64,000 bases of DNA from a virus: IMG/VR virus record IMGVR_UViG_3300021962_000054, positions 31,796-95,795 of that record; one strand, 5' to 3'. A model generated the notes under the pieces. The model saw only the letters and a list, made by a program, of their open reading frames with translations. It was not told the origin of the DNA and did not search any database. Position 1 is the first letter of the stretch. Each line of letters starts with the position of its first letter. This document shows positions 18,306-63,906 of the stretch, piece after piece. The position numbers and the translations under genes are program-made.

Positions 18306-18365
18306 ATGTAATCATTTTGTAACACATTATTTTGTAAATAGTGTTACAAAAAAAACGGAGTATAT

Positions 18366-18737
18366 ATGAGATTTCTAACAAGGAAGTTAGTACAGCCCGG
18401 CGATCTAAACGTAAGAGGCACACTCTTTGGTGGTCGCTTATTGGCTTGGGTTGACGAAGAAGCAGCGATCTTTGCTGGTGTTGAAACTAGACACAATAAG
18501 GTGGTGACTAAAAAGATTTCAGCAATCGATTTTATCGCGCCTGCATTTCAAGGTGACATCGTTGAGATCGGCGTCGCGCTAAAACGTGTAGGCAAGACAA
18601 GTGTAACTTTAGAAGTGCAGGTACGAAATCTAGTCACGCAAAAGGTTATCGTAAATATAGATGAAATGGTTTTTGTATGTGTCGATGAGAACGGTGTTCC
18701 CGTCAGACATATGTTAGGATTACCTAAGGGACAATAG
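18366..18737 (+). CDS. acyl-CoA thioesterase (hotdog fold, YciA-like)
   Basis: DLN..GTLFGG.LL.W.DE, VG.TS, FVCVD. Confidence 0.9.
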   Translation: MRFLTRKLVQPGDLNVRGTLFGGRLLAWVDEEAAIFAGVETRHNKVVTKKISAIDFIAPAFQGDIVEIGVALKRVGKTSVTLEVQVRNLVTQKVIVNIDEMVFVCVDENGVPVRHMLGLPKGQ

Positions 18738-29855: not shown

Positions 29856-30407
29856 ATGATTTGTGAATCTACGCCATTATCTAATTTTATAAAAAAATTT
29901 GATAAAGTTATACCAGACAAATTGTGCGATACAATAATAAATGATTCCTATGAATACTATAAGCACCACTGGTATACAAACATCAATGGTGCAGTACCGG
30001 GTGATAATAAAGATTTTGATCGATCATCTGTCAAAACAAAACACTATCTATTTTTGAAACCGATTCTGGATAAATGTATAGAAAAAGGACCTTTTTCAGA
30101 TCATTTCAGTTTGATTGGGGAAAGTGAGGTACTTCTAAATCGATATAATGTCAGTACTAGAATGAGACCGCATTTCGATCACATAAATTCGTTGTTCGAC
30201 GGACAAAAAAAAGGTATTCCAGTCTTGAGCATTGTTGGATTGTTAAATGATGATTTTGAGGGAGGAGATTTTCTTTTTTTTGAAAATTATAATATTTCTT
30301 TACAAAAAGGAGATATTGTAATTTTTCCCTCAAATTTTCTTTTCCCTCATGGGGTTTCTGATATTACCAATGGAACAAGATATAGCATAGTGCAATGGAG
30401 ATGGTAA
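29856..30407 (+). CDS. 2OG-Fe(II) oxygenase (P4Hc-like)
   Basis: HFD, LNDDFEGG, GD..IFPSNF.FPH.V, G.RYS. Confidence 0.9.
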   Translation: MICESTPLSNFIKKFDKVIPDKLCDTIINDSYEYYKHHWYTNINGAVPGDNKDFDRSSVKTKHYLFLKPILDKCIEKGPFSDHFSLIGESEVLLNRYNVSTRMRPHFDHINSLFDGQKKGIPVLSIVGLLNDDFEGGDFLFFENYNISLQKGDIVIFPSNFLFPHGVSDITNGTRYSIVQWRW

Positions 30408-30458
30408 ATAAATTATCATGTTATACTACTATAGTCTTGCTACCGTGCTAATCTATTT

Positions 30459-31052
30459 ATGAAAGAGTGTGAAAATTTTCTTCCTCTTTTTTATCAAAAA
30501 AGGCTACAAGGTTTGTTTGGATCAAATATTTTTCCCTGGCTTTATTACAAAAATGTAAGCGGTCTCGACGCAGCAGAGATGGCTAGCTTGTGTAAAGAAG
30601 ATTCCAACATTAGAGAGGGATATGGTTTTCAACACTTGATTTATGGAGAAAATCAAAAATATGATAAACGACTATATGAAAATTTAAATTTTATAGAATT
30701 ATTTTCTAAAGCAATAAAGTCAAAATTCTCTGTTGAAGTCAATCAAATACTTAGAATTATGGTTGGACTTACTTTGCCTGATATAACTTATAAACCTACT
30801 CAATACTTTTGTCCGCATGTCGACAGGGTTACTACACACCAGACAGTTATATACAATATCAATACACATGATGCTGGCACTAGGATATTCAAAGAAAAAT
30901 TTGATGGAAAACCTAATCTCGACAAGAAAACACACATTCATACCGCTATTAGTAAACAGGGTAGTGCAATATTATTTGATGGGTTGACATATCATGCAGG
31001 CGCCATACCAAATATGTTCGATAAACTAATAATCAACATCAATTTTGTATGA
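30459..31052 (+). CDS. 2OG-Fe(II) oxygenase (paralog of 27155-27733)
   Basis: PHVD, KQG.A.LFDG..YHAG, ININF. Confidence 0.85.
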   Translation: MKECENFLPLFYQKRLQGLFGSNIFPWLYYKNVSGLDAAEMASLCKEDSNIREGYGFQHLIYGENQKYDKRLYENLNFIELFSKAIKSKFSVEVNQILRIMVGLTLPDITYKPTQYFCPHVDRVTTHQTVIYNINTHDAGTRIFKEKFDGKPNLDKKTHIHTAISKQGSAILFDGLTYHAGAIPNMFDKLIININFV

Positions 31053-31861
31053 GCGATCTACTACATCTCAATACTAATTACTACGTGAACCCTAACGGGC
31101 TGGCATTTGATTTTAGAGATAATAGTGAAATAACTTTGATAAAATTTTTAGGCTATGAAGTAAAACAAAAACCTATCGAACATTTGTTAAGATTTTGGAA
31201 AACTCTGTCACGAAAGTTAGCTGGTTCTGATTGCAACATAGTTATAGTAACAGATAGAGGTAATAATAGACATTATATCGCCAATTATTTTGGCATAGAA
31301 AATGTTTGTAACAATGTTTGGGAGTTATCGAAATTACTAAACGACAAAATCTACCTAAATAGTAAAACAAAACGATGTATCGTGTTCGCAGATTGCGGTG
31401 GCACTATCCCCGCTATTTTGAGTTCTACCATAGTAAAATATCATAGCATAAATGTGACTACTCCCTATCTGACAATAGTCGGTTCAGAAAATGAGTTCGA
31501 TACTAATCAATATACATTGTGGTATTCTAGGGAGTTGTGTGTTGAAATATATCACGATGCACAGGAATTTAGGGATTATTACGATACTTTACAATATTAT
31601 GATCGTTATACACAAGAACCAGACAGTTTATTGAATATGCATTGGGCATCTAATGTAAAAGGAACGGACCTATATTTCAGAAACAGGGCAAATCAATTAC
31701 CAAAAAGATCAAATATCACAATCACAGATCATGTTTTACCGGCGCATATAGAAGGCCACAATCTAACAAAGTATCTATGGGCAAATAAGCAATATCAAGG
31801 GCTTCTAAAACAACAGTTATTGATACAAAAAGGATATCTAGATACTGTCACAAAACTGTAA
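31049..31861 (+). CDS. hypothetical protein
   Basis: 270-aa ORF; ADCGG may be an alpha/beta-hydrolase-like elbow. Confidence 0.65.
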   Translation: MSDLLHLNTNYYVNPNGLAFDFRDNSEITLIKFLGYEVKQKPIEHLLRFWKTLSRKLAGSDCNIVIVTDRGNNRHYIANYFGIENVCNNVWELSKLLNDKIYLNSKTKRCIVFADCGGTIPAILSSTIVKYHSINVTTPYLTIVGSENEFDTNQYTLWYSRELCVEIYHDAQEFRDYYDTLQYYDRYTQEPDSLLNMHWASNVKGTDLYFRNRANQLPKRSNITITDHVLPAHIEGHNLTKYLWANKQYQGLLKQQLLIQKGYLDTVTKL

Positions 31862-31862
31862 C
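31845..31862 (+). promoter_or_regulatory. Pho box (PhoB site)
   Basis: CTGTCAC-AAAA-CTGTAAC versus consensus CTGTCAT-AWAW-CTGTMAY; TAAATA at 31885. Confidence 0.75.
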
Positions 31863-31965
31863 TGTTTTACACACCATGTGCCTCTAAATACCGTTGCCCG
31901 TAAGTTTTATTTGGGTCATCGTGATCCATGTAAATAATCTCGTATAAAAACAAAGGAGACTATAA

Positions 31966-34900
31966 ATGAGTCAATTATCTGGTAAGATTTGGAGCAGGCT
32001 AACAGTTAGTTTAGCTGTCGCTTCAATAGCTCTAGTGTCACTCATGGGTAATCCCGTGAATGCGCAAGAGACGGCTGCCAGTGCTGCAGGTGTTGTTCAA
32101 TCTGAACAGGGTGCAGCTAGCGGCCTATCAGTTGAAGTGCTACACGTTCCATCAGGAACAGTCAGCAAATCAACTACTGATGCAAACGGTAGATATGTTC
32201 TACGCGGTTTGCGTGTAGGTGGTCCTTATAAGGTCACTGTCAAAGGTGAAGGGTACAAAACTGTAGTATTAGAAAATCAGTTTTTAGCCCTCGGAGATAA
32301 CGGTAACTTGAACCTCGTTACAGAATCAAGTGATCTAGCAGAAGTAGTAGTGTTAGCCGGTCGTGCTGATCTAGTATTTGATAGTTCACGCACTGGTACA
32401 GGTACTACAGTTAGCAACGAACAGATCGTAGCACTCCCAACAATCAGTCGTAATATTCAGGATCTCGTAAGAACAGATCCTCGTATCGCTCAGACTGATA
32501 AAGAGCGTGGTGAAATTTCAGCAGGTGGACAAAACACTCGCTTCAACAACATTCGTATTGACGGTGTCAGCACCAACGATGCGTTTGGTCTTGAAGCAAA
32601 CAATCTACCAACTGATCGTCAACCAATTCCGTTGGATGCAATCGAATCAATCAATATCGCATTGACAGATTTCGACGTTGCTCGTTCGTCATTCACTGGC
32701 GCAAGCATCGACGCAATCACTAAGTCAGGTACAAACAAGTGGAGGGGAACTTCATACTTCCTCACACGCGATGCTGACTGGGTCGGAAAGCGCAATGGTC
32801 AAAAGTTCAACGGTTTCGATAAAGAAGAAACAGTTGGCTTGACTATCGGCGGTCCAATCATTGAAGACAAGTTGTTCGTCTTTGCTTCTTATGAGAAGTT
32901 TGAACGCGCAGCATTGGCTCCAACATTTGGTCCAACTGGTTCTGATAGCGCACAGATCGTAACAGGTATTTCACAAGCACAACTTGATGAAGCCGCAGCA
33001 ATCGCTAAAGATGTATGGGGTTTCGACGCTGGTTCATTCAATCCTCCCGGTGCTCTAAACACTGAGATTGAAGATATCATGGTCAAGTTTGACTGGAACA
33101 TCAATGACAGTCATCGTGCTGCTCTACGTGTCAATCGCACAGAGCAAAGCGATCCATACTTACGTAATATCGGACCACGTGATCTTTCATTGAGTGGTTA
33201 CTGGCACATCAATAACAAGAAGTTTGAAAGTGCGGTTGCTCATTTGTATAGCAACTGGACAGACAATCTTTCAACTGAGATGTCAGTCAGTGTCGCCAAT
33301 CAAAGTTCACTTTGGGATATCGGCGATCCTCGTCCAACAGTTCGCATCTGCTTGAACAGTTCATCCTGTTCTGGTGCTGATAGCATTTGGTTGGGTAGCG
33401 AGAGATTCCGTCATGTGAACATTCTTGAAACTGAAACATTGAACGCATTCGCAGCAGCAACTTATGTTGTTGGTGATCATGCTATCAAGTTCGGTGCTGA
33501 ATACGAAACAAGAGATATCTTCAATCTCTTCGGACGTGATCAGTTTGGTTACTATGAGTTCTATGGCTTGAATAACTTCCGTTCAGGTACACCAGCAGTT
33601 TACAACCTTTTCTATCCAGTCAATGGTGATGTAAACAGCCGTGCTGCTGCTTGGACATTAGAGAATGCTGCCGTGTTCTTACAGGATACTTGGACAATCA
33701 GCCCAACGTTGAATGTCACAGCAGGTGTTCGTGTTGATATGCCAATCGTGGGAGATACTCCTCCATACAATGCTGTTGCCAGTGACTTCTTTGGTCTACG
33801 CAACGACAGCACTCCAGATGGTAACTATCTCATTCAACCACGTGTTGGATTCAACTGGCAACCAGAATGGTCTGATCGTAAGACACAGGTTCGTGGTGGC
33901 GTTGGCTTGTTCCAAGGTATCGCCGCTAACGTGTGGTTGAGCAATCCATTCAGCAACAATAACGTGACTCAGGGAGCAATCTTTGATAATCGTGCTGCTC
34001 AGAATGGCATCGTGTTCAGTCCAGATCCAAACAATCAGCCAGGAGTTCGTCCACCACCAGGACTTGGTGGTAACGTTGACTTCTTGAGTCCAGACCTACA
34101 ACTCCCAGCAGCATATAAAGTTTCTTTCGCTGTTGATCATGAGTTGCCATGGTACGGATTGGTTGCAAGTTTTGAGACTGTTCTAACTGAAGTCGATGAA
34201 GGCATTCGCTATGTGAAGCCAAACTTAGGCGCACCAACAGGAGTTGCTCCAGATGGTCGTCCATTGTATTGGTCAACTGTGAATCCTGCTACCTTCACTG
34301 GTTCAAGTTCACAGCGTACAGCCAACACAAATCGTGACTTTGGTGTAGATTCAACGATTGCTCTACCAACATCGAAAGGTGATGGTAAGCAGTTCACTGT
34401 TTCATTACAAGGTCCTCAGAATGAGAACTGGTACTGGAACGTTGGATACACCTACACTGAAGCAACTGAAGTCAATACATTGACATCTTCACAAGCCGCA
34501 TCAAATTGGAACAACGCAGTTCGTGTTGATACCAACGCCGATGTTGCCGAGAAGTCAGTGTATGCCATCAAAGATCGTTTCACGGCAACTGTAAGTTATC
34601 GTAAGAAGTTCTTTGCTGACTTAGTAAGCTCAGTTGGTGTGTTCTATGAAGGTCGCATTGGTCGCCCATACACTTTCACTTTCGTCAATGACGCAAACGG
34701 CGATGGTCGTGTAAACGATCCATTCTTTGTGCCAAACAGAGGTGATGTTGTATTCAAGGGCGGTGCTGCTATGGAGCAAGCATTCTTTGATTATCTTGCT
34801 TCAAACGGTGAACTCGCTAAGTATCAAGGTGGTATTGCTGAAGTAAACAACAACAATGCTCCTTGGGTTCATAACGTTGACATTCGCCTCTCACAAGAAT

Positions 34901-35157
34901 TGCCAGTCTTTGGTGATGTGAAGGGTGAAGTATGGCTCGACATCATGAACGTTGGCAACATGATCAATAAGGATTGGGGTGTGATTGAAGAAGTCGGATT
35001 CCCAGGTGCCTTTGGTGTTGCTCGTTTCGCTGGTGTTGACGCTTCAGGAAAGTATGTCTACGATTTCCGTGCTTCGGATCTACGTGACTTGACTCTCCGC
35101 GACAACCGTGGTGAATCACGCTGGGCGATGCAGCTCGGTGTCAAGTTCAAGTTCTAA
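31966..35157 (+). CDS. TonB-dependent receptor (Oar-like, N-terminal carboxypeptidase-regulatory-like domain)
   Basis: Signal peptide, TDANGRY..GLRVGGPY, plug motif IDGV...DAIESI, amphipathic beta strands, terminal Phe. Confidence 0.93.
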   Translation: MSQLSGKIWSRLTVSLAVASIALVSLMGNPVNAQETAASAAGVVQSEQGAASGLSVEVLHVPSGTVSKSTTDANGRYVLRGLRVGGPYKVTVKGEGYKTVVLENQFLALGDNGNLNLVTESSDLAEVVVLAGRADLVFDSSRTGTGTTVSNEQIVALPTISRNIQDLVRTDPRIAQTDKERGEISAGGQNTRFNNIRIDGVSTNDAFGLEANNLPTDRQPIPLDAIESINIALTDFDVARSSFTGASIDAITKSGTNKWRGTSYFLTRDADWVGKRNGQKFNGFDKEETVGLTIGGPIIEDKLFVFASYEKFERAALAPTFGPTGSDSAQIVTGISQAQLDEAAAIAKDVWGFDAGSFNPPGALNTEIEDIMVKFDWNINDSHRAALRVNRTEQSDPYLRNIGPRDLSLSGYWHINNKKFESAVAHLYSNWTDNLSTEMSVSVANQSSLWDIGDPRPTVRICLNSSSCSGADSIWLGSERFRHVNILETETLNAFAAATYVVGDHAIKFGAEYETRDIFNLFGRDQFGYYEFYGLNNFRSGTPAVYNLFYPVNGDVNSRAAAWTLENAAVFLQDTWTISPTLNVTAGVRVDMPIVGDTPPYNAVASDFFGLRNDSTPDGNYLIQPRVGFNWQPEWSDRKTQVRGGVGLFQGIAANVWLSNPFSNNNVTQGAIFDNRAAQNGIVFSPDPNNQPGVRPPPGLGGNVDFLSPDLQLPAAYKVSFAVDHELPWYGLVASFETVLTEVDEGIRYVKPNLGAPTGVAPDGRPLYWSTVNPATFTGSSSQRTANTNRDFGVDSTIALPTSKGDGKQFTVSLQGPQNENWYWNVGYTYTEATEVNTLTSSQAASNWNNAVRVDTNADVAEKSVYAIKDRFTATVSYRKKFFADLVSSVGVFYEGRIGRPYTFTFVNDANGDGRVNDPFFVPNRGDVVFKGGAAMEQAFFDYLASNGELAKYQGGIAEVNNNNAPWVHNVDIRLSQELPVFGDVKGEVWLDIMNVGNMINKDWGVIEEVGFPGAFGVARFAGVDASGKYVYDFRASDLRDLTLRDNRGESRWAMQLGVKFKF

Positions 35158-35178
35158 TGAATTTGAAATATGACAACA

Positions 35179-35209
35179 AGAAGGGGAGCAAAAACTCCCC
35201 TTCTTTTTT
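35179..35209 (+). terminator. intrinsic terminator
   Basis: AGAAGGGGAG/CTCCCCTTCT followed by Ts. Confidence 0.85.
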
Positions 35210-35385
35210 GGATATAGAAAGTCCGTTATGGCTACTATTGTATTGTCTAATATCATGCACTATTGGTATAGGCTTGATATTGACTATGTTATTTTTTGTG
35301 TCAAACTTTGCGTAAAATATACAACTATATTCATTCAGTAATATAGTATTACATTATTGTTACATTCAACTAGGTAAATATTCTT

Positions 35386-35481
35386 ATGTCCCGAGAGGTT
35401 CATATCTAACATTCCTATAGGTCTTTGACTTATGTGTATGTTATTTGGATCGAACGGGACATCATGCCATTTATTTGGCAT
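35386..35481 (+). promoter_or_regulatory. structured 5' leader of the porin gene
   Basis: ATGTCCCG/CGGGACAT long hairpin plus ATGCCA/TGGCAT, between TAAATA (35375) and the RBS. Confidence 0.55.
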
Positions 35482-35503
35482 AACAACAAGGAGATAAAAT
35501 TAT

Positions 35504-36481
35504 ATGCGTAAAGCATTTTTGACATTAGTTATGTTAGGATCACTTTCTGCAACTGCTATTGCTGGTGAACTAAATCTAAATGGTGGCATCGGCTATCGTT
35601 TTGACAGTGTAGAACTAGCAGCAGGACCAAAATCAGAAAAAGATCGTCTTGGAGCAGAGTTGGTATTATCAAACAAGGTCAACGACAAGATCAATGCTGT
35701 CGTAGGTCTACGTACTGGTAGTTTCAACAGCCAATACGATGATATGGGTCCAGGTGGTCAGTTGAAGGATGTGAATCTACACCTAGCATATGTTGAATAC
35801 GCTGCTATGGATAATGTCAAGGTAACACTTGGCAAGATGCATCAACCTTGGGCAAGTTCACCAAGTCTATTTTTTGACCGTGACGTAAAGCCAGAAGGCG
35901 TGGCAGTAAGTTGGAAGAGTGAATCAGGATTGTTTGCTAATGCTTCAAGTCTAAAACTTGTAGAAGGCGGCATCAACGATGATTCTAAGGTACAGAGCCT
36001 ACAAGTCGGCTTGCATAAGAATCTAGCAGGACTTCACTTCAAGGGCGCAGTAGCACTACATGATCATAAGATCAAGCACGTTGCTATCGGCGGCATCAGT
36101 GATGCTAAATTACAGCAAGCATTTGCTTCAGTAGGAACAAAATTCGCTGGTAAGCCAGTAGTATTGTTCGCAGACTACATGAAGAACGACAAGGCAAGTG
36201 CAGAGGACACAGCCCTAGCATATGGTATCAAGTTTGGACATGCTAAGAAACCACAAGAGTGGGATCTAAGCGTATTCCATCAAGATGTAGAAGCCAATGC
36301 TCAGTTTGGTTTGTGGAATGATTCTGACTTTGCTCTATCACAAGGTGGTCACAAAGGCTATGGTCTAGTCGGTGGCTATGTTGTAGCAGACGGTTGGAAA
36401 GTAAACGCCAAGTATTTCGATGTTGAAATCGGAAATGCTGATGTAAAGCGTCTACAACTAGACTTGAATTACATGTTCTAA
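35504..36481 (+). CDS. outer-membrane beta-barrel porin (putative porin family)
   Basis: Signal peptide; LAYVEY..., TLGKM, FDRDVKPEG; terminal RLQLDLNYMF. Confidence 0.85.
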   Translation: MRKAFLTLVMLGSLSATAIAGELNLNGGIGYRFDSVELAAGPKSEKDRLGAELVLSNKVNDKINAVVGLRTGSFNSQYDDMGPGGQLKDVNLHLAYVEYAAMDNVKVTLGKMHQPWASSPSLFFDRDVKPEGVAVSWKSESGLFANASSLKLVEGGINDDSKVQSLQVGLHKNLAGLHFKGAVALHDHKIKHVAIGGISDAKLQQAFASVGTKFAGKPVVLFADYMKNDKASAEDTALAYGIKFGHAKKPQEWDLSVFHQDVEANAQFGLWNDSDFALSQGGHKGYGLVGGYVVADGWKVNAKYFDVEIGNADVKRLQLDLNYMF

Positions 36482-36589
36482 TTTAGAACTAACATTTCAG
36501 TCAGGAACAGGGGAGATAGAAATATCTCCTCTTTTCTTTTGTAAAAAAAATATGATTATAAATATTATTGTTACAACAGGAGATTTTCA

Positions 36590-36727
36590 GTGGCTATTGG
36601 TTCAACAACATCAAAAAGACAAACAGTGATCAAGCGTACAAGCCAGGGCGGAGCTAATCCAAAGACTAGTGCTATGAACAAAGATCGCAAACGTACTTAC
36701 AAGAAATATCGTGGACAAGGAAAATGA
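36590..36727 (+). CDS. small basic T4-like phage protein (KKYRGQG family)
   Basis: Read manually; TATAAATA plus AGGAG; KRTSQG...KKYRGQGK. Confidence 0.8.
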   Translation: MAIGSTTSKRQTVIKRTSQGGANPKTSAMNKDRKRTYKKYRGQGK

Positions 36728-36864
36728 GCGGTAAAGGAAGTAAGCCTAGACCTTTCAGTGTAGATCGAAAAATATATGAAAGTAACTGGGACAAGATATT
36801 CGGTAAAAATAGCAATAAAAAAGTTATTGAAAAAAATAAGAAGAAACAAAAGATAGATATATAA
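36724..36864 (+). CDS. small basic phage protein (GKGSKPRP family)
   Basis: Read manually; ATGA coupling; MSGKGSKPRPFSV...NWDKIF. Confidence 0.75.
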   Translation: MSGKGSKPRPFSVDRKIYESNWDKIFGKNSNKKVIEKNKKKQKIDI

Positions 36865-36873
36865 TAATACACT

Positions 36874-36949
36874 GCGGGTGTAGCTCAGTTGGTAGAGCAT
36901 TACCTTGCCAAGGTAAATGTCGGGCGTTCGAGCCGCCTCACCCGCTCCA
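36874..36949 (+). tRNA. tRNA-Gly(GCC)
   Basis: TT-GCC-AA, U73, CCA. Confidence 0.95.
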
Positions 36950-36967
36950 TTATAAACTAAATACTAC

Positions 36968-37459
36968 ATGCTTTACATTTCTTATCGTGGTATTTACGAC
37001 GGCACCAATTATGAAGACGCTAACACTCCTAGCCAGTTAGGCAAAGCTATGGGCATGGGCTTTTCATGCATGATCGATATATGGAAAGTGGACGACAAGT
37101 TCTATCTAGGTAATGATCAACCATTGACTGAAGTCACAGAGAAATACATACAGGGCAATCGTTGGTGGATCAATGCTAGAAACACTGCAATGCAAAATTG
37201 GTTACCTACACAGAATCAGAAACTATATCCTAACTGGTTCTACTTCACTACTCCTACTCCTCCTCCGCCATATGTCACAGCAAGTAACGGTAAATTGATC
37301 ACGCCGGGCACCGTGCCTGTCAACAATGATAGCGTTATCTTTTTACCTGAGATTGATGATAAGGGATTGTTTAGCACAGTGCATCTACGCAATTATGGAG
37401 TAATCAGCACTTATCTAACGTTTATAAGACGCATTAGGCAAGAGGGTGCTAGGTACTAG
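36968..37459 (+). CDS. glycerophosphodiesterase/PLC-like protein (catalytic His apparently substituted)
   Basis: ISYRG..ANTP..GF..MIDIW..YLGND resembles ISHRG..ENT..EIDVW..LGHD. Confidence 0.55.
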   Translation: MLYISYRGIYDGTNYEDANTPSQLGKAMGMGFSCMIDIWKVDDKFYLGNDQPLTEVTEKYIQGNRWWINARNTAMQNWLPTQNQKLYPNWFYFTTPTPPPPYVTASNGKLITPGTVPVNNDSVIFLPEIDDKGLFSTVHLRNYGVISTYLTFIRRIRQEGARY

Positions 37460-37896
37460 AGATGCCTTACACAATAAGCATTTTTACCTAATTCACTATC
37501 TTCCCAATCACTAGCTAACTTGAATCCAGCTTTATTATAAGTTGACCAGCTATTATATTTGGGATAGCTCCATATATATCCTGCACCTTTACTAGTAGCA
37601 AAATCGATAGATTCTTTCAGTAAGACTGTGCCTATACCTTTATTTCTAAAGTCTGGATTTACATATAAGCCCCTGCTGCGATATCCCCCGTCGCTACATG
37701 GATGAACGCTATTCACTCCTACTATCATATTATCGATCTTATAAGCAAAAAAAGTAGCCGGTTTTACCATGTTATCTAAACTATATCCGCCTAGGAAACA
37801 CATAGCACTTGTTTCTGTGATCTCTGATATCCTATCAGGCCACAAGTCGTGTTTCCAAATTGGGAAAATCTTAGAAAAATCTGCTTGAATGACCAT
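37456..37896 (-). CDS. GNAT acetyltransferase
   Basis: RGLYVNPDFRNKGIG acetyl-CoA motif; Y.KAGF. Confidence 0.9.
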   Translation of the reverse strand: MVIQADFSKIFPIWKHDLWPDRISEITETSAMCFLGGYSLDNMVKPATFFAYKIDNMIVGVNSVHPCSDGGYRSRGLYVNPDFRNKGIGTVLLKESIDFATSKGAGYIWSYPKYNSWSTYNKAGFKLASDWEDSELGKNAYCVRHL

Positions 37897-62310: not shown

Positions 62311-62877
62311 TCACTTCTCCTCTAATGTTGCTTGTAAATCCTGTAATACTTTCATATACAGGTCTTCTCCGGCAGCAACTTGTTCCTTCCAAGTTGTAGC
62401 AGCGTTCTCATCTGCCTGATCGCTGATATATTTGTAAATCTCACAACTAACTCCTGCCATCAAGCAAGATTTAGCAATACTGAAACATTCCATATCTACC
62501 ATGTCACACTTTACTCTAAGTTTGTGTCGTTCTGTGACATGCATATCTCCTGTCGCACAAGTGTAACCTTGTCCTTCAAAAGTTATAACGTTAGTATTGT
62601 CTAATGCGATATATCCGGGCTGTAGTCCCATAGCCAATAAATTGACATCATGCTGTATGACATTGTTGACACGATGTATGCCAGATGACAATGTGATGCC
62701 ACCTGCGGTGCCTAGATTGATTACACGTTTTGGATTATATGTAGCAATTAGATTTGTGACACTGATCGCAGCATTGACTTTGCCTATGCCGATACAAAAC
62801 ACATTCCTATACTTACTGAATAAGTTAGGAGCCTCATCACGCAATGCGAAAACGATTAGATCATTCATTGACATCAA
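62311..62877 (-). CDS. mtnN: MTA/SAH nucleosidase (PNP_UDP_1 family)
   Basis: GIGKVNAA, INLGTAGG, TGD, DME, ISD.AD. Confidence 0.85.
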   Translation of the reverse strand: MMSMNDLIVFALRDEAPNLFSKYRNVFCIGIGKVNAAISVTNLIATYNPKRVINLGTAGGITLSSGIHRVNNVIQHDVNLLAMGLQPGYIALDNTNVITFEGQGYTCATGDMHVTERHKLRVKCDMVDMECFSIAKSCLMAGVSCEIYKYISDQADENAATTWKEQVAAGEDLYMKVLQDLQATLEEK

Positions 62878-63400
62878 TAAGCGTCTCTACATGTACGCCT
62901 AATTCACGTAACTTTTGTTTACCAGGAAGGAAACTGATATTCAATAGACATGCTACAGTCATGCTATTATAAGGTACACCTAATTCATGTACAAGTTTAC
63001 ATATCGCTTCTGCTGTGCCGCCTGTCGCTAACACATCATCAACGATCATCACACTTCCTTTAGAATAATCAAACTTGCGTAATTCAAGTGTATCGGTGCC
63101 ATATTCTAATTCATATTCACGGCTGATCAGTTCGCCGGGCATCTTGCCTTTCTTTCTGACAACATGTAATGGAATGCCTAATCTATATGCTATTGGGCTT
63201 CCCCAGATAAATCCTCTAGCATCGGCTGCGAAAATATAATCAACATCATGGCCAGCCGCCACATTATAGAAATATTCTATACTTTCACGAAAGGCTACAG
63301 GTTTTGCACATACATCAACAGTGTTCAAATAATTGATGCCATCTTTGGGCCAATTACGATATACGGGTAATGCGTCTAATATGATTTGTTTGTCTATCAT
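62861..63400 (-). CDS. apt: adenine phosphoribosyltransferase
   Basis: ADARGF, RKKGKMPG, Y.LEYG, IVDDVLATGGT. Confidence 0.95.
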   Translation of the reverse strand: MIDKQIILDALPVYRNWPKDGINYLNTVDVCAKPVAFRESIEYFYNVAAGHDVDYIFAADARGFIWGSPIAYRLGIPLHVVRKKGKMPGELISREYELEYGTDTLELRKFDYSKGSVMIVDDVLATGGTAEAICKLVHELGVPYNSMTVACLLNISFLPGKQKLRELGVHVETLIDVNE

Positions 63401-63906
63401 TTTTTGAGTGTGTTCCAAATCTTTTCTTTTTCTAATATATCTTTTTCAAGTTCACGATACTTATCACCTAGTGCTTTGAGTTCTTCCCACTTTTCTTCTA
63501 ACACTTCATTAGGATGTAATATACCTAATCGTTGTTCAATCTTGTCTAATGATTCGGTAAGACTTTTGCCTTTGAGTTTTATATCGCCTTCAAACTCAGC
63601 GTCACCTTGCACTTTGAGTTTGGGATCAGCATATTGCCAAGTATCACTAAAACTTAGTGAAGGGCTAATATTACCTAGACTATAGCCACCTGTACTATTT
63701 GTAGCCCAAGTATAACTACCACTGCTTGAACTAGGATATGGCCAAGTATTGCCTGCTACTGTAGAAATAGTCGATGCGCTAGCAGTCGAGGTCATCATAT
63801 TATCATCGTAAAACAAATCACCTTGCGCAAAGGTTTTGTCATCTGCTAACTTTTGTAAAAGTTTGTCTATTTCCGAGAAGTCAATTTTGATATTATTTTC
63901 GTCCAT
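63397..63906 (-). CDS. conserved hypothetical phage protein
   Basis: S/T-rich linker, V.GDA.FEG, IEQRL.IL..N..LE..W coiled coil. Confidence 0.75.
   Translation of the reverse strand: MDENNIKIDFSEIDKLLQKLADDKTFAQGDLFYDDNMMTSTASASTISTVAGNTWPYPSSSSGSYTWATNSTGGYSLGNISPSLSFSDTWQYADPKLKVQGDAEFEGDIKLKGKSLTESLDKIEQRLGILHPNEVLEEKWEELKALGDKYRELEKDILEKEKIWNTLKK

Follow-up and report, generated by a model that had tools for sequence, protein, structure and literature searches.

In cyanophages, phosphate-stress genes (pstS, phoA and others) are controlled by the host PhoBR system through Pho boxes, as described for S-PM2d (PMC10976474) and in the P-SSM2 work cited there. Host-controlled phosphate genes of phages have so far been known mainly from these marine viruses, where they encode periplasmic proteins. 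Here, we describe a locus in which predicted Pho boxes stand before the genes of two outer-membrane proteins, an Oar-type TonB-dependent receptor (TBDR) and a porin of the Porin_5 family. The locus lies in a stretch of 64,000 nucleotides (nt), called the window below, which covers positions 31,796 to 95,795 of the IMG/VR virus record IMGVR_UViG_3300021962_000054. The record is 95.8 kb long and 27% complete by CheckV, and the window is a portion of a large T4-like aquatic phage. The original prediction for this DNA, made from its letters alone, was that the phage places outer-membrane uptake of phosphorus under host phosphate sensing; we give this Pho-box-controlled mechanism a probability of roughly 0.6.

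The original prediction also drew an analogy with cyanophages, and its logic holds: a T4-like lytic phage carries host-derived phosphorus genes behind sites for the phosphate-starvation regulator of its host, although here the sites are predicted. The analogy does not extend to the type of box. The box in the window is the proteobacterial direct repeat (TGTCAY/TGTAAY with an 11-bp period) and not the cyanobacterial PyTTAAPyPyT/A, and it is joined to a phage TAAATA element. The cargo differs as well, since it consists of two outer-membrane proteins instead of the periplasmic PstS and PhoA.

The textbook Pho-regulated, pst-linked porins are OprP and OprO of Pseudomonas. Bacterial homologues of the phage porin likewise adjoin pstS and have Pho boxes, whereas the phage protein itself belongs to Porin_5, is shorter (325 amino acids) and has a predicted structure like that of general 16-strand porins. 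The receptor shares domain order, length, 42–70% identity and many invariant residues with bacterial Oar-type transporters of Xanthomonadales/Lysobacterales and Steroidobacteraceae; the window copy differs in being phage-encoded, with a guanine plus cytosine (GC) content lowered to 45% and an unrelated regulatory region.

Phage-encoded outer-membrane transport proteins have a precedent in phages of ammonia oxidisers, which carry TonB-dependent transporters and OmpA/OmpF-type porins as accessory (moron) genes (10.64898/2026.05.02.722434). Several of those phages, however, are described as temperate, and their genes are discussed for iron or haem with no nutrient-sensing control described (10.64898/2026.05.02.722434), whereas the window phage is T4-like and has a phosphate-island setting. 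Our literature search turned up no publication in which Pho control is described for a phage-encoded porin or TonB receptor. New in the window are the presence of the TBDR within a phosphate island and the reversal of the site at the porin; the boxes have also been tested here in a statistically independent way.

Pho-box-like sites before the receptor and porin genes

The scan for PhoB sites was based on a matrix built without any phage sequence or consensus. Within the order to which the nearest donor belongs (Steroidobacteraceae-like), we took 250 nt of upstream sequence from each of 26 pstS genes and 12 porin homologues as input, with genome G021 (locus L155) left out of the motif work. Unseeded Gibbs sampling returned TGNAAY-N5-YGTAACA, an 11-bp direct repeat recognisable as a Pho box.

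When both strands of the contig (~191,000 positions) were scored with this host-order matrix, the best match was at 35347(-), before the porin gene (17.0 bits), and the second at 31846(+), before the TBDR gene (16.0 bits; the order used may not be that of the true host). The third, at 18307(+), precedes a thioesterase gene (15.6 bits), and the next best position reached 13.3 bits. The two leading matches are the very sites that had been claimed: a near-consensus Pho box 22 nt from the TAAATA of the receptor gene and an inverted Pho-like pair before the TAAATA of the porin. With matrices trained on the two promoter sets separately, the TBDR site ranked first (porin only) and fourth (pstS only), and the porin site ranked second with each.

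When the intergenic DNA of the phage itself was modelled by a second-order Markov chain, the probability of one such match on either strand is ~0.0011 per 200-nt interval, and chance is therefore not a serious explanation. A search with the Escherichia coli 18-mer consensus, allowing at most 3 mismatches, gave the TBDR site as its sole match in the window (2 mismatches; 0.04 matches expected). By these scores, each of the two sites genuinely matches a Pho box of the host type. Sequence comparison gives strong support to the TBDR site and also to a phosphate context for the two genes.

Two other searches were set aside. A loose pattern (CTGTCAT-N4-CTGTCAT with 3 mismatches) matched 11 times in the window and is uninformative alone. 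A first matrix, derived from sites picked by the E. coli consensus, was circular and placed the TBDR site only at rank five; it was dropped for unseeded sampling.

The TBDR box (Table 1) coincides in part with the end of the open reading frame (ORF) at 31049-31861, covering its final codons and its stop. Before the porin, the reverse complement of the site reads ATGTAAC-AATA-ATGTAAT and lies 10 nt from the TAAATA. The site at 18307 stands 59 nt before a gene for a YciA/4HBT-type acyl-CoA thioesterase (18366-18737). Only here do direct orientation and a distance of ~10 nt to the -10 element occur together among the three sites; the TBDR site departs in spacing and the porin site in orientation.

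Two details of these sites are worth recording. An inverted half-site copy, GTGTTACA, follows the TAAATA at the 18307 site. The thioesterase there is not classic Pho-regulon cargo, and it may be linked to lipid turnover. The reversed porin site is bracketed by a sigma-70-like pair on the minus strand (TTGAAT-N18-TATATT, 35340-35369) and could control an antisense transcript running toward the TBDR terminator; overall, the sigma-70 pattern scan was not above chance, with no more sites than in shuffles.

Predicted hybrid promoters in the phage family

TAAATA is enriched 8.5-fold in the 120 nt before genes (37 of its 73 occurrences), and before tail-fibre genes it stands at -24 to -30. No conserved positions were found upstream of 27 TAAATA sites. 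For this reason, we rejected the possibility that TGTAAC is a piece of a general phage promoter. T4 late promoters are likewise built from a short AT-rich -10-like element, with neither a -35 nor a conserved upstream element, and stand before structural genes. Since the TAAATA promoters have no general upstream element, the boxes are additions to individual promoters.

The same combination recurs in related phages. We searched both strands of 203 kb of window and related phage DNA for the strict pattern TGT[CA]A[CT]-N5-TG[TC][CA]A[CT] and obtained 8 matches, all of them promoter-proximal. Seven are direct, and in each of these a TAAATA comes 11 or 21-22 nt further on; the eighth is the reversed porin site. 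The direct matches precede the TBDR and thioesterase genes of the window, a pstS gene (L007) and genes for an LpxH/PlcP-like phosphoesterase (L004, L008, L009, L010). The 21-22-nt distance seen at the TBDR gene was found in four related phage promoters.

A further set of 55 distinct regions upstream of PlcP-like genes gave a similar picture. All seven matches to a looser pattern had the same spacings, and the pattern occurred there at ~70 times the background rate. Unseeded sampling of the 55 regions yielded an 11-bp direct repeat at ~-60, which puts TGTCAT-type and TTTAAT/CGTAAT-type sites in one register. The recurrent spacing of box and TAAATA before classic Pho-regulon cargo makes this combination a recurring device of the phage family.

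These observations also bear on the possibility that the genes are expressed solely from late-type TAAATA promoters, the repeats being bound by another OmpR/PhoB-family regulator or a phage regulator, or having no function. OmpR-family sites resemble Pho boxes, and many structural genes of the window have TAAATA alone, without an upstream element. On the other hand, the two best matrix matches in 95.8 kb sit exactly before the two genes in question, the motif was learnt from pstS promoters, and phage pstS and PlcP-like genes, whose sequence contexts have diverged, show the same spacing. We regard expression from TAAATA alone as unlikely, even when the features of the two promoters that speak for it, discussed below, are counted.

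A broader version of Pho control can be formulated as well: a family-wide viral Pho regulon with hybrid promoters (Pho box and TAAATA at 10 or 21 nt), an island extended by TBDR capture from a Steroidobacteraceae-like host, and a reversed porin site that gives an opposite or independent response. The phage would then possess a viral outer-membrane importer that is energy-coupled and subject to nutrient sensing. We put this forward tentatively, with the odds leaning slightly against it.

Many PlcP-like genes of the L176-L285 set stand behind a second repeat type, TTTAAT-N5-CGTAAT, followed after ~10 nt by TATATAAT; it probably reflects hosts with a different Pho-box dialect. In L251 (60-80), a reversed strict match (GTTACA-N5-ATTACA on the strand of the gene) precedes a PlcP-like gene, 25 nt from TAAATA; the contig end is too near to reveal any divergent gene.

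The porin and its phosphate island

In related phages, the porin belongs to a phosphate island that is modular over more than 100 viral contigs (L176-L285). The arrangement PlcP-like>PstS>porin was found in 12 viral loci and PstS>porin in 15, and PstS stands directly before the porin in 29; in related phages, a PlcP-like gene can also hold this place. Other versions read PlcP-like>GT2>porin, in some cases continued by UDP-glucose dehydrogenase, and in four related phage contigs (L003, L011, L012, L013) a TBDR gene directly precedes a PlcP-like gene. These arrangements indicate that the window phage carries a variant of the island, in which the porin is preceded by the TBDR.

With the PstS/porin/PlcP-like/glycosyltransferase island of its relatives, the window shares the porin family, which in those phages comes with pstS/PlcP-like linkage and Pho-box promoters. 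It differs in the TBDR before the porin, the reversed porin box and the lack of pstS and PlcP-like genes in 95.8 kb: the PlcP-like gene was not found there, and neither were the PstS and PhoH families, although absence from the phage is not inferable from such a fragment.

The next large gene after the receptor had been called an intact porin, and its ORF is indeed open. The protein matches Porin_5 (PF16930; E 5.5e-14, 52 bits, cut-off 22), a domain present in all close homologues, and its N-terminal part alone matches Porin_O_P (PF07396) barely above the cut-off (21.7 versus 20.9 bits). The terminal Phe is invariant in the alignment. Copies in seven viral contigs are 63-74% identical, with a ratio of nonsynonymous to synonymous substitution rates (dN/dS) of 0.18-0.29 between phage copies; bacterial relatives are distant (at most 38% identity). 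The structural model is a 16-strand barrel with a predicted local distance difference test (pLDDT) value of 83.7, for which the fold search returned general porins first (TM-score up to 0.75). A sequence search of the PDB gave no match.

In bacteria, too, this porin family has a phosphate context. Homologues occur in 60 of the 151 genomes from the order of the Steroidobacteraceae contig, and they carry Pho boxes. In 8 genomes, the homologue lies 1-5 kb from pstS on the same strand.

The linkage of these genes is relevant to another explanation, namely that the two proteins remodel the cell surface, either by replacing or masking receptors (superinfection exclusion) or by altering permeability, with phosphate control being incidental. 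TonB receptors and porins are common as phage receptors (10.64898/2026.05.02.722434), and the TBDR is patchy and sits in differing neighbourhoods, as accessory genes often do. Surface remodelling does not account for the tight linkage of the porin to pstS in the 29 viral loci and in bacteria, or for the position of the TBDR in four other phage contigs, where a PlcP-like gene comes directly after it. Moreover, Pho-type promoters fit nutrient stress, and both proteins are under purifying and not diversifying selection. Taken together, this makes surface remodelling rather improbable.

The porin gene has a promoter of its own. Its TAAATA corresponds to GTWAAATAYT in relatives, and an upstream motif, AAAATATACNACTAT, is common to the porin upstream regions of related phages; a second copy of it was not found in the window. 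The transcript would begin with a structured leader. Hairpin 1, closed by 35386-35393 and 35455-35462, starts ~6 nt after TAAATA, and hairpin 2 (35464-35469/35476-35481, ATGCCA/TGGCAT) lies directly before the Shine-Dalgarno sequence AAGGAG at 35488-35493. Across the window and L004-L010, the leader has 13 pairs, 3 of them with compensatory changes, and it exists in a short form (73 nt) and in long forms (132-155 nt) with an insertion inside hairpin 1. No Rfam family matched the leader, and in the scan of 31700-37000 the only match was one tRNA. By analogy with the 5' stem-loops of ompA, the leader may be an mRNA stabiliser, or it may be a regulatory element.

Table 1. Coordinates of the predicted features, given as positions in the window.
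Feature	Position	Strand	Remarks
Third Pho-box-like repeat (TGTAAT-N5-TGTAAC), 10 nt, then TAAATA	18307..18340	+	
Pho-box-like direct repeat CTGTCACAAAACTGTAAC (TGTCAC-N5-TGTAAC)	31845-31862	+	before TBDR gene
TAAATA promoter-like motif	31885..31890	+	21-22 nt after TBDR box
Second TAAATA motif	31931..31936	+	35 nt before TBDR start codon
Oar-type TonB-dependent receptor, 1063 amino acids	31966..35157	+	intact ORF, signal peptide, C-terminal Phe
Intrinsic terminator after TBDR gene	35178..35213	+	11-bp stem and T run
Conserved porin-specific upstream motif AAAATATACNACTAT	35314..35328	+	common to porin upstream regions of related phages
Reversed Pho-box-like repeat before porin	35348-35365	-	TGTAAC-N5-TGTAAT on minus strand
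TAAATA of conserved porin promoter	35375..35380	+	GTWAAATAYT in relatives
Structured 5' leader of porin mRNA	35386..35503	+	
Porin_5-family (pst-linked) porin, 325 amino acids	35504..36481	+	intact ORF, signal peptide, C-terminal Phe
Intrinsic terminator after porin gene	36509..36540	+	

The TonB-dependent receptor and its bacterial relatives

The claim of an intact TonB-dependent receptor is borne out by an open ORF with Oar-type Pfam domains. These are CarboxypepD_reg (PF13620; E 1e-12, residues 42-117), the Plug domain (PF07715; 25.5 bits, cut-off 23.9) and the barrel OMP_b-brl_4 (PF25183; E 7e-39, residues 365-1001). The N-terminus is hydrophobic and ends in AQ/E. The last residue, F1063, is invariant among 12 aligned sequences, whose alignment has ~200 invariant columns. 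In total, we collected 3341 homologues, and the bacterial members matched the protein over its full length (99-100% coverage).

Copies on other low-GC phage-like contigs are 81-89% identical to the window protein, and proteins on two 62%-GC contigs are 70% identical. One of these contigs is labelled Steroidobacteraceae; the other is labelled Klebsiella, which does not fit the tree. In a quick maximum-likelihood tree made with IQ-TREE, the phage clade is sister to Steroidobacteraceae-type proteins, inside a gammaproteobacterial group, and both forks have a value of 100 in the Shimodaira-Hasegawa-like approximate likelihood ratio test (SH-aLRT). The GC content of the gene is 45%, compared with ~33-39% in its flanks, and dN/dS between phage copies is 0.13-0.15. 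By these three measures of the sequence, the gene is derived from a host, a Steroidobacteraceae-like gammaproteobacterium, and is maintained in phages in working form under purifying selection. Its distribution among related phages is patchy, and its neighbourhoods differ.

Pho boxes are a feature of the wider bacterial family. Orthologues from Xanthomonadales/Lysobacterales have direct matches at -135 to -250, with 36 matches in 38 kb of upstream sequence versus 42 in 1102 kb elsewhere (25-fold enrichment). The original prediction had named closest homologues without Pho boxes as evidence against itself, and in this respect the result favours the prediction for the wider family, which has boxes. 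The nearest bacterial TBDRs (~59-70% identity) have no strong box by the host-order matrix, which gives no support to Pho control of this subclade. We also considered that the box was inherited together with the gene from its donor. Since it is absent from the nearest bacterial loci, this idea is unsupported, and transfer of the gene alone apparently does not explain the phage box.

The TBDR gene of the closest bacterial locus is flanked by a gene for a NupC-type nucleoside transporter on one side and by genes for an EEP nuclease/phosphatase and a phosphoribosyltransferase on the other. This neighbourhood (L052) hints at nucleic-acid scavenging. Among the orthologue loci, the EEP nuclease and nucleoside-transporter neighbours are confined to L052/L053, so the hint to the substrate is weak.

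The nearest relatives, which lack a strong box, also speak for the possibility that the TBDR imports a nutrient unrelated to phosphorus (an iron complex, a peptide or a carbohydrate), its Pho-like site being a coincidence of AT-rich DNA. Some database sources call the homologues iron-transport receptors, and Oar-type transporters have no established substrate. The iron names are automatic, however, and the architecture is that of Oar and not of siderophore receptors. Coincidence would have to overcome a chance of ~0.001 per interval even with the intergenic model, and it leaves the enrichment of boxes before the Xanthomonadales orthologues and the nucleoside-transporter and EEP neighbours of the nearest bacterial locus without explanation. 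We consider import of such a nutrient highly improbable.

Some further observations concern the surroundings of TBDR genes. In L052 (4860-4880) and L053, an inverted repeat, TGTTGC-N6-GCAACA, lies at about -106 from the TBDR start, in place of a strong Pho box. In L012 (4700-4950) and L002 (5850-5950), the TBDR gene (84% identical) stands behind a near-consensus sigma-70 promoter, TTGACA-N17-TACACT, whose spacer contains a 17-nt palindrome (ACACATA-AAA-TATGTGT) resembling an operator for another regulator. The gene upstream of this promoter encodes what we take, by eye, to be a small heat-shock (Hsp20) protein. In the window, a 52-codon ORF (35157-35315) begins at the TBDR stop and crosses the terminator hairpin. 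Its protein has a C-terminal hydrophobic helix and is 65% identical to that at the same position after the TBDR in L003, where the terminator hairpin is also found; it could be a small membrane protein or merely conserved non-coding sequence.

Proposed mechanism and points against it

Strong intrinsic terminators follow both genes, which therefore form two separate transcription units. In our model, a phosphate-starved host would already contain phosphorylated PhoB at infection. PhoB would bind the box and increase transcription of the TBDR gene from a hybrid promoter that combines a Pho box of the host type with the phage TAAATA. It would act in the same way at the thioesterase promoter and, in related phages, at pstS and PlcP-like genes. 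The porin unit would be governed by its own conserved promoter and two-hairpin leader, together with the reversed Pho-like site in the -35 region.

Both proteins would then cross the inner membrane through Sec, and the beta-barrel assembly machinery would insert them into the outer membrane of the host. There, the porin would raise the flux of phosphate to the periplasm, while the TBDR, energised by the host TonB system, would import a larger phosphorus compound. The added phosphorus would support the phage as it replicates its very large genome. What we infer here is that PhoB binds and in which direction it acts at the porin promoter, together with the substrates and the host.

Several observations weigh against this mechanism, and they concern the boxes, their distribution and the proteins. 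At 16-17 bits, the two sites score below three quarters of the training sites (lower quartile 17.3, median 19.4), and the TBDR site reaches no more than 12.7 bits when the matrix is trained on pstS alone. The order that supplied the matrix may not be that of the true host. Reversal, as in the porin site, occurs in none of 38 bacterial sites, and the TBDR box lies 21-22 nt from TAAATA, one helical turn further than the canonical 10-11 nt. If TAAATA is read by a phage sigma factor without region 4, the known contact between PhoB and sigma70 would be barred. The reversed site and the non-canonical spacing also favour expression from TAAATA alone, as does the experience with cyanophages, in which predicted Pho boxes often fail binding tests (PMC10976474).

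The comparison with other phages points in the same direction. In related phages whose TBDR is 81-89% identical, the upstream regions are unrelated and the box is missing; by matrix score, no box of at least 11 bits precedes the TBDR in L011/L014 and L012/L002. Seven relatives share the porin promoter and leader but have neither the reversed site nor any other box of at least 11 bits before the porin, which again suits transcription from TAAATA without PhoB. As for the proteins, general porins lead the fold search with the modelled porin and OprP is absent from the best 50 structures, and phosphate selectivity is thus unsupported by the model.

Uptake under phosphate sensing, as originally proposed, is partly supported, namely by the TBDR site and the phosphate context of both genes; the reversed porin site and the missing boxes in relatives do not fit it. 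If the mechanism is true, it would mean that a logic known from cyanophages is also at work in large phages that infect heterotrophic Proteobacteria, and that it extends there to the outer membrane, where a pore and an active transporter are supplied. In estuaries and lakes, infection would alter which phosphorus compounds a starved cell is able to import. For the TBDR family, in which Pho boxes occur throughout Xanthomonadales, a connection with phosphorus nutrition could then be put to the test. The promoter of box and TAAATA would be a compact case of a host activator working with phage-type promoters.

The phage and its neighbouring genes

The contig carries genes that mark it as phage DNA: a ribonucleotide reductase gene, many collagen-like tail-fibre genes and 26 tRNA genes. 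Among GenBank phages, the DNA search returned tRNA matches only, and the protein search gave a single match to the TBDR, at 29% identity, and none to the porin.

Contigs from aquatic metatranscriptome libraries (n = 4) cover the coding regions of both the TBDR and the porin, and some of the pieces match the window with 0 or 1 differences. Their summed depth is high over the porin; 30400-32058 and 36562-36798 are uncovered. Because these data are contigs and DNA may have been carried over into the libraries, the cover is only compatible with natural transcription and can neither rank the genes nor show transcript ends.

Around the locus, the TBDR gene is preceded at ~1.5 kb by a gene for a 2OG-Fe(II) oxygenase (29856-30407). 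The porin terminator is directly followed by a gene for tRNA-Gly (36874-36949), and a GNAT acetyltransferase gene (37456-37896) lies ~1 kb downstream of the porin gene. Further away, a phosphoribosyltransferase encoded on the minus strand (62861-63418) is 33% identical to the one located two genes downstream of the TBDR in the bacterial locus L052.

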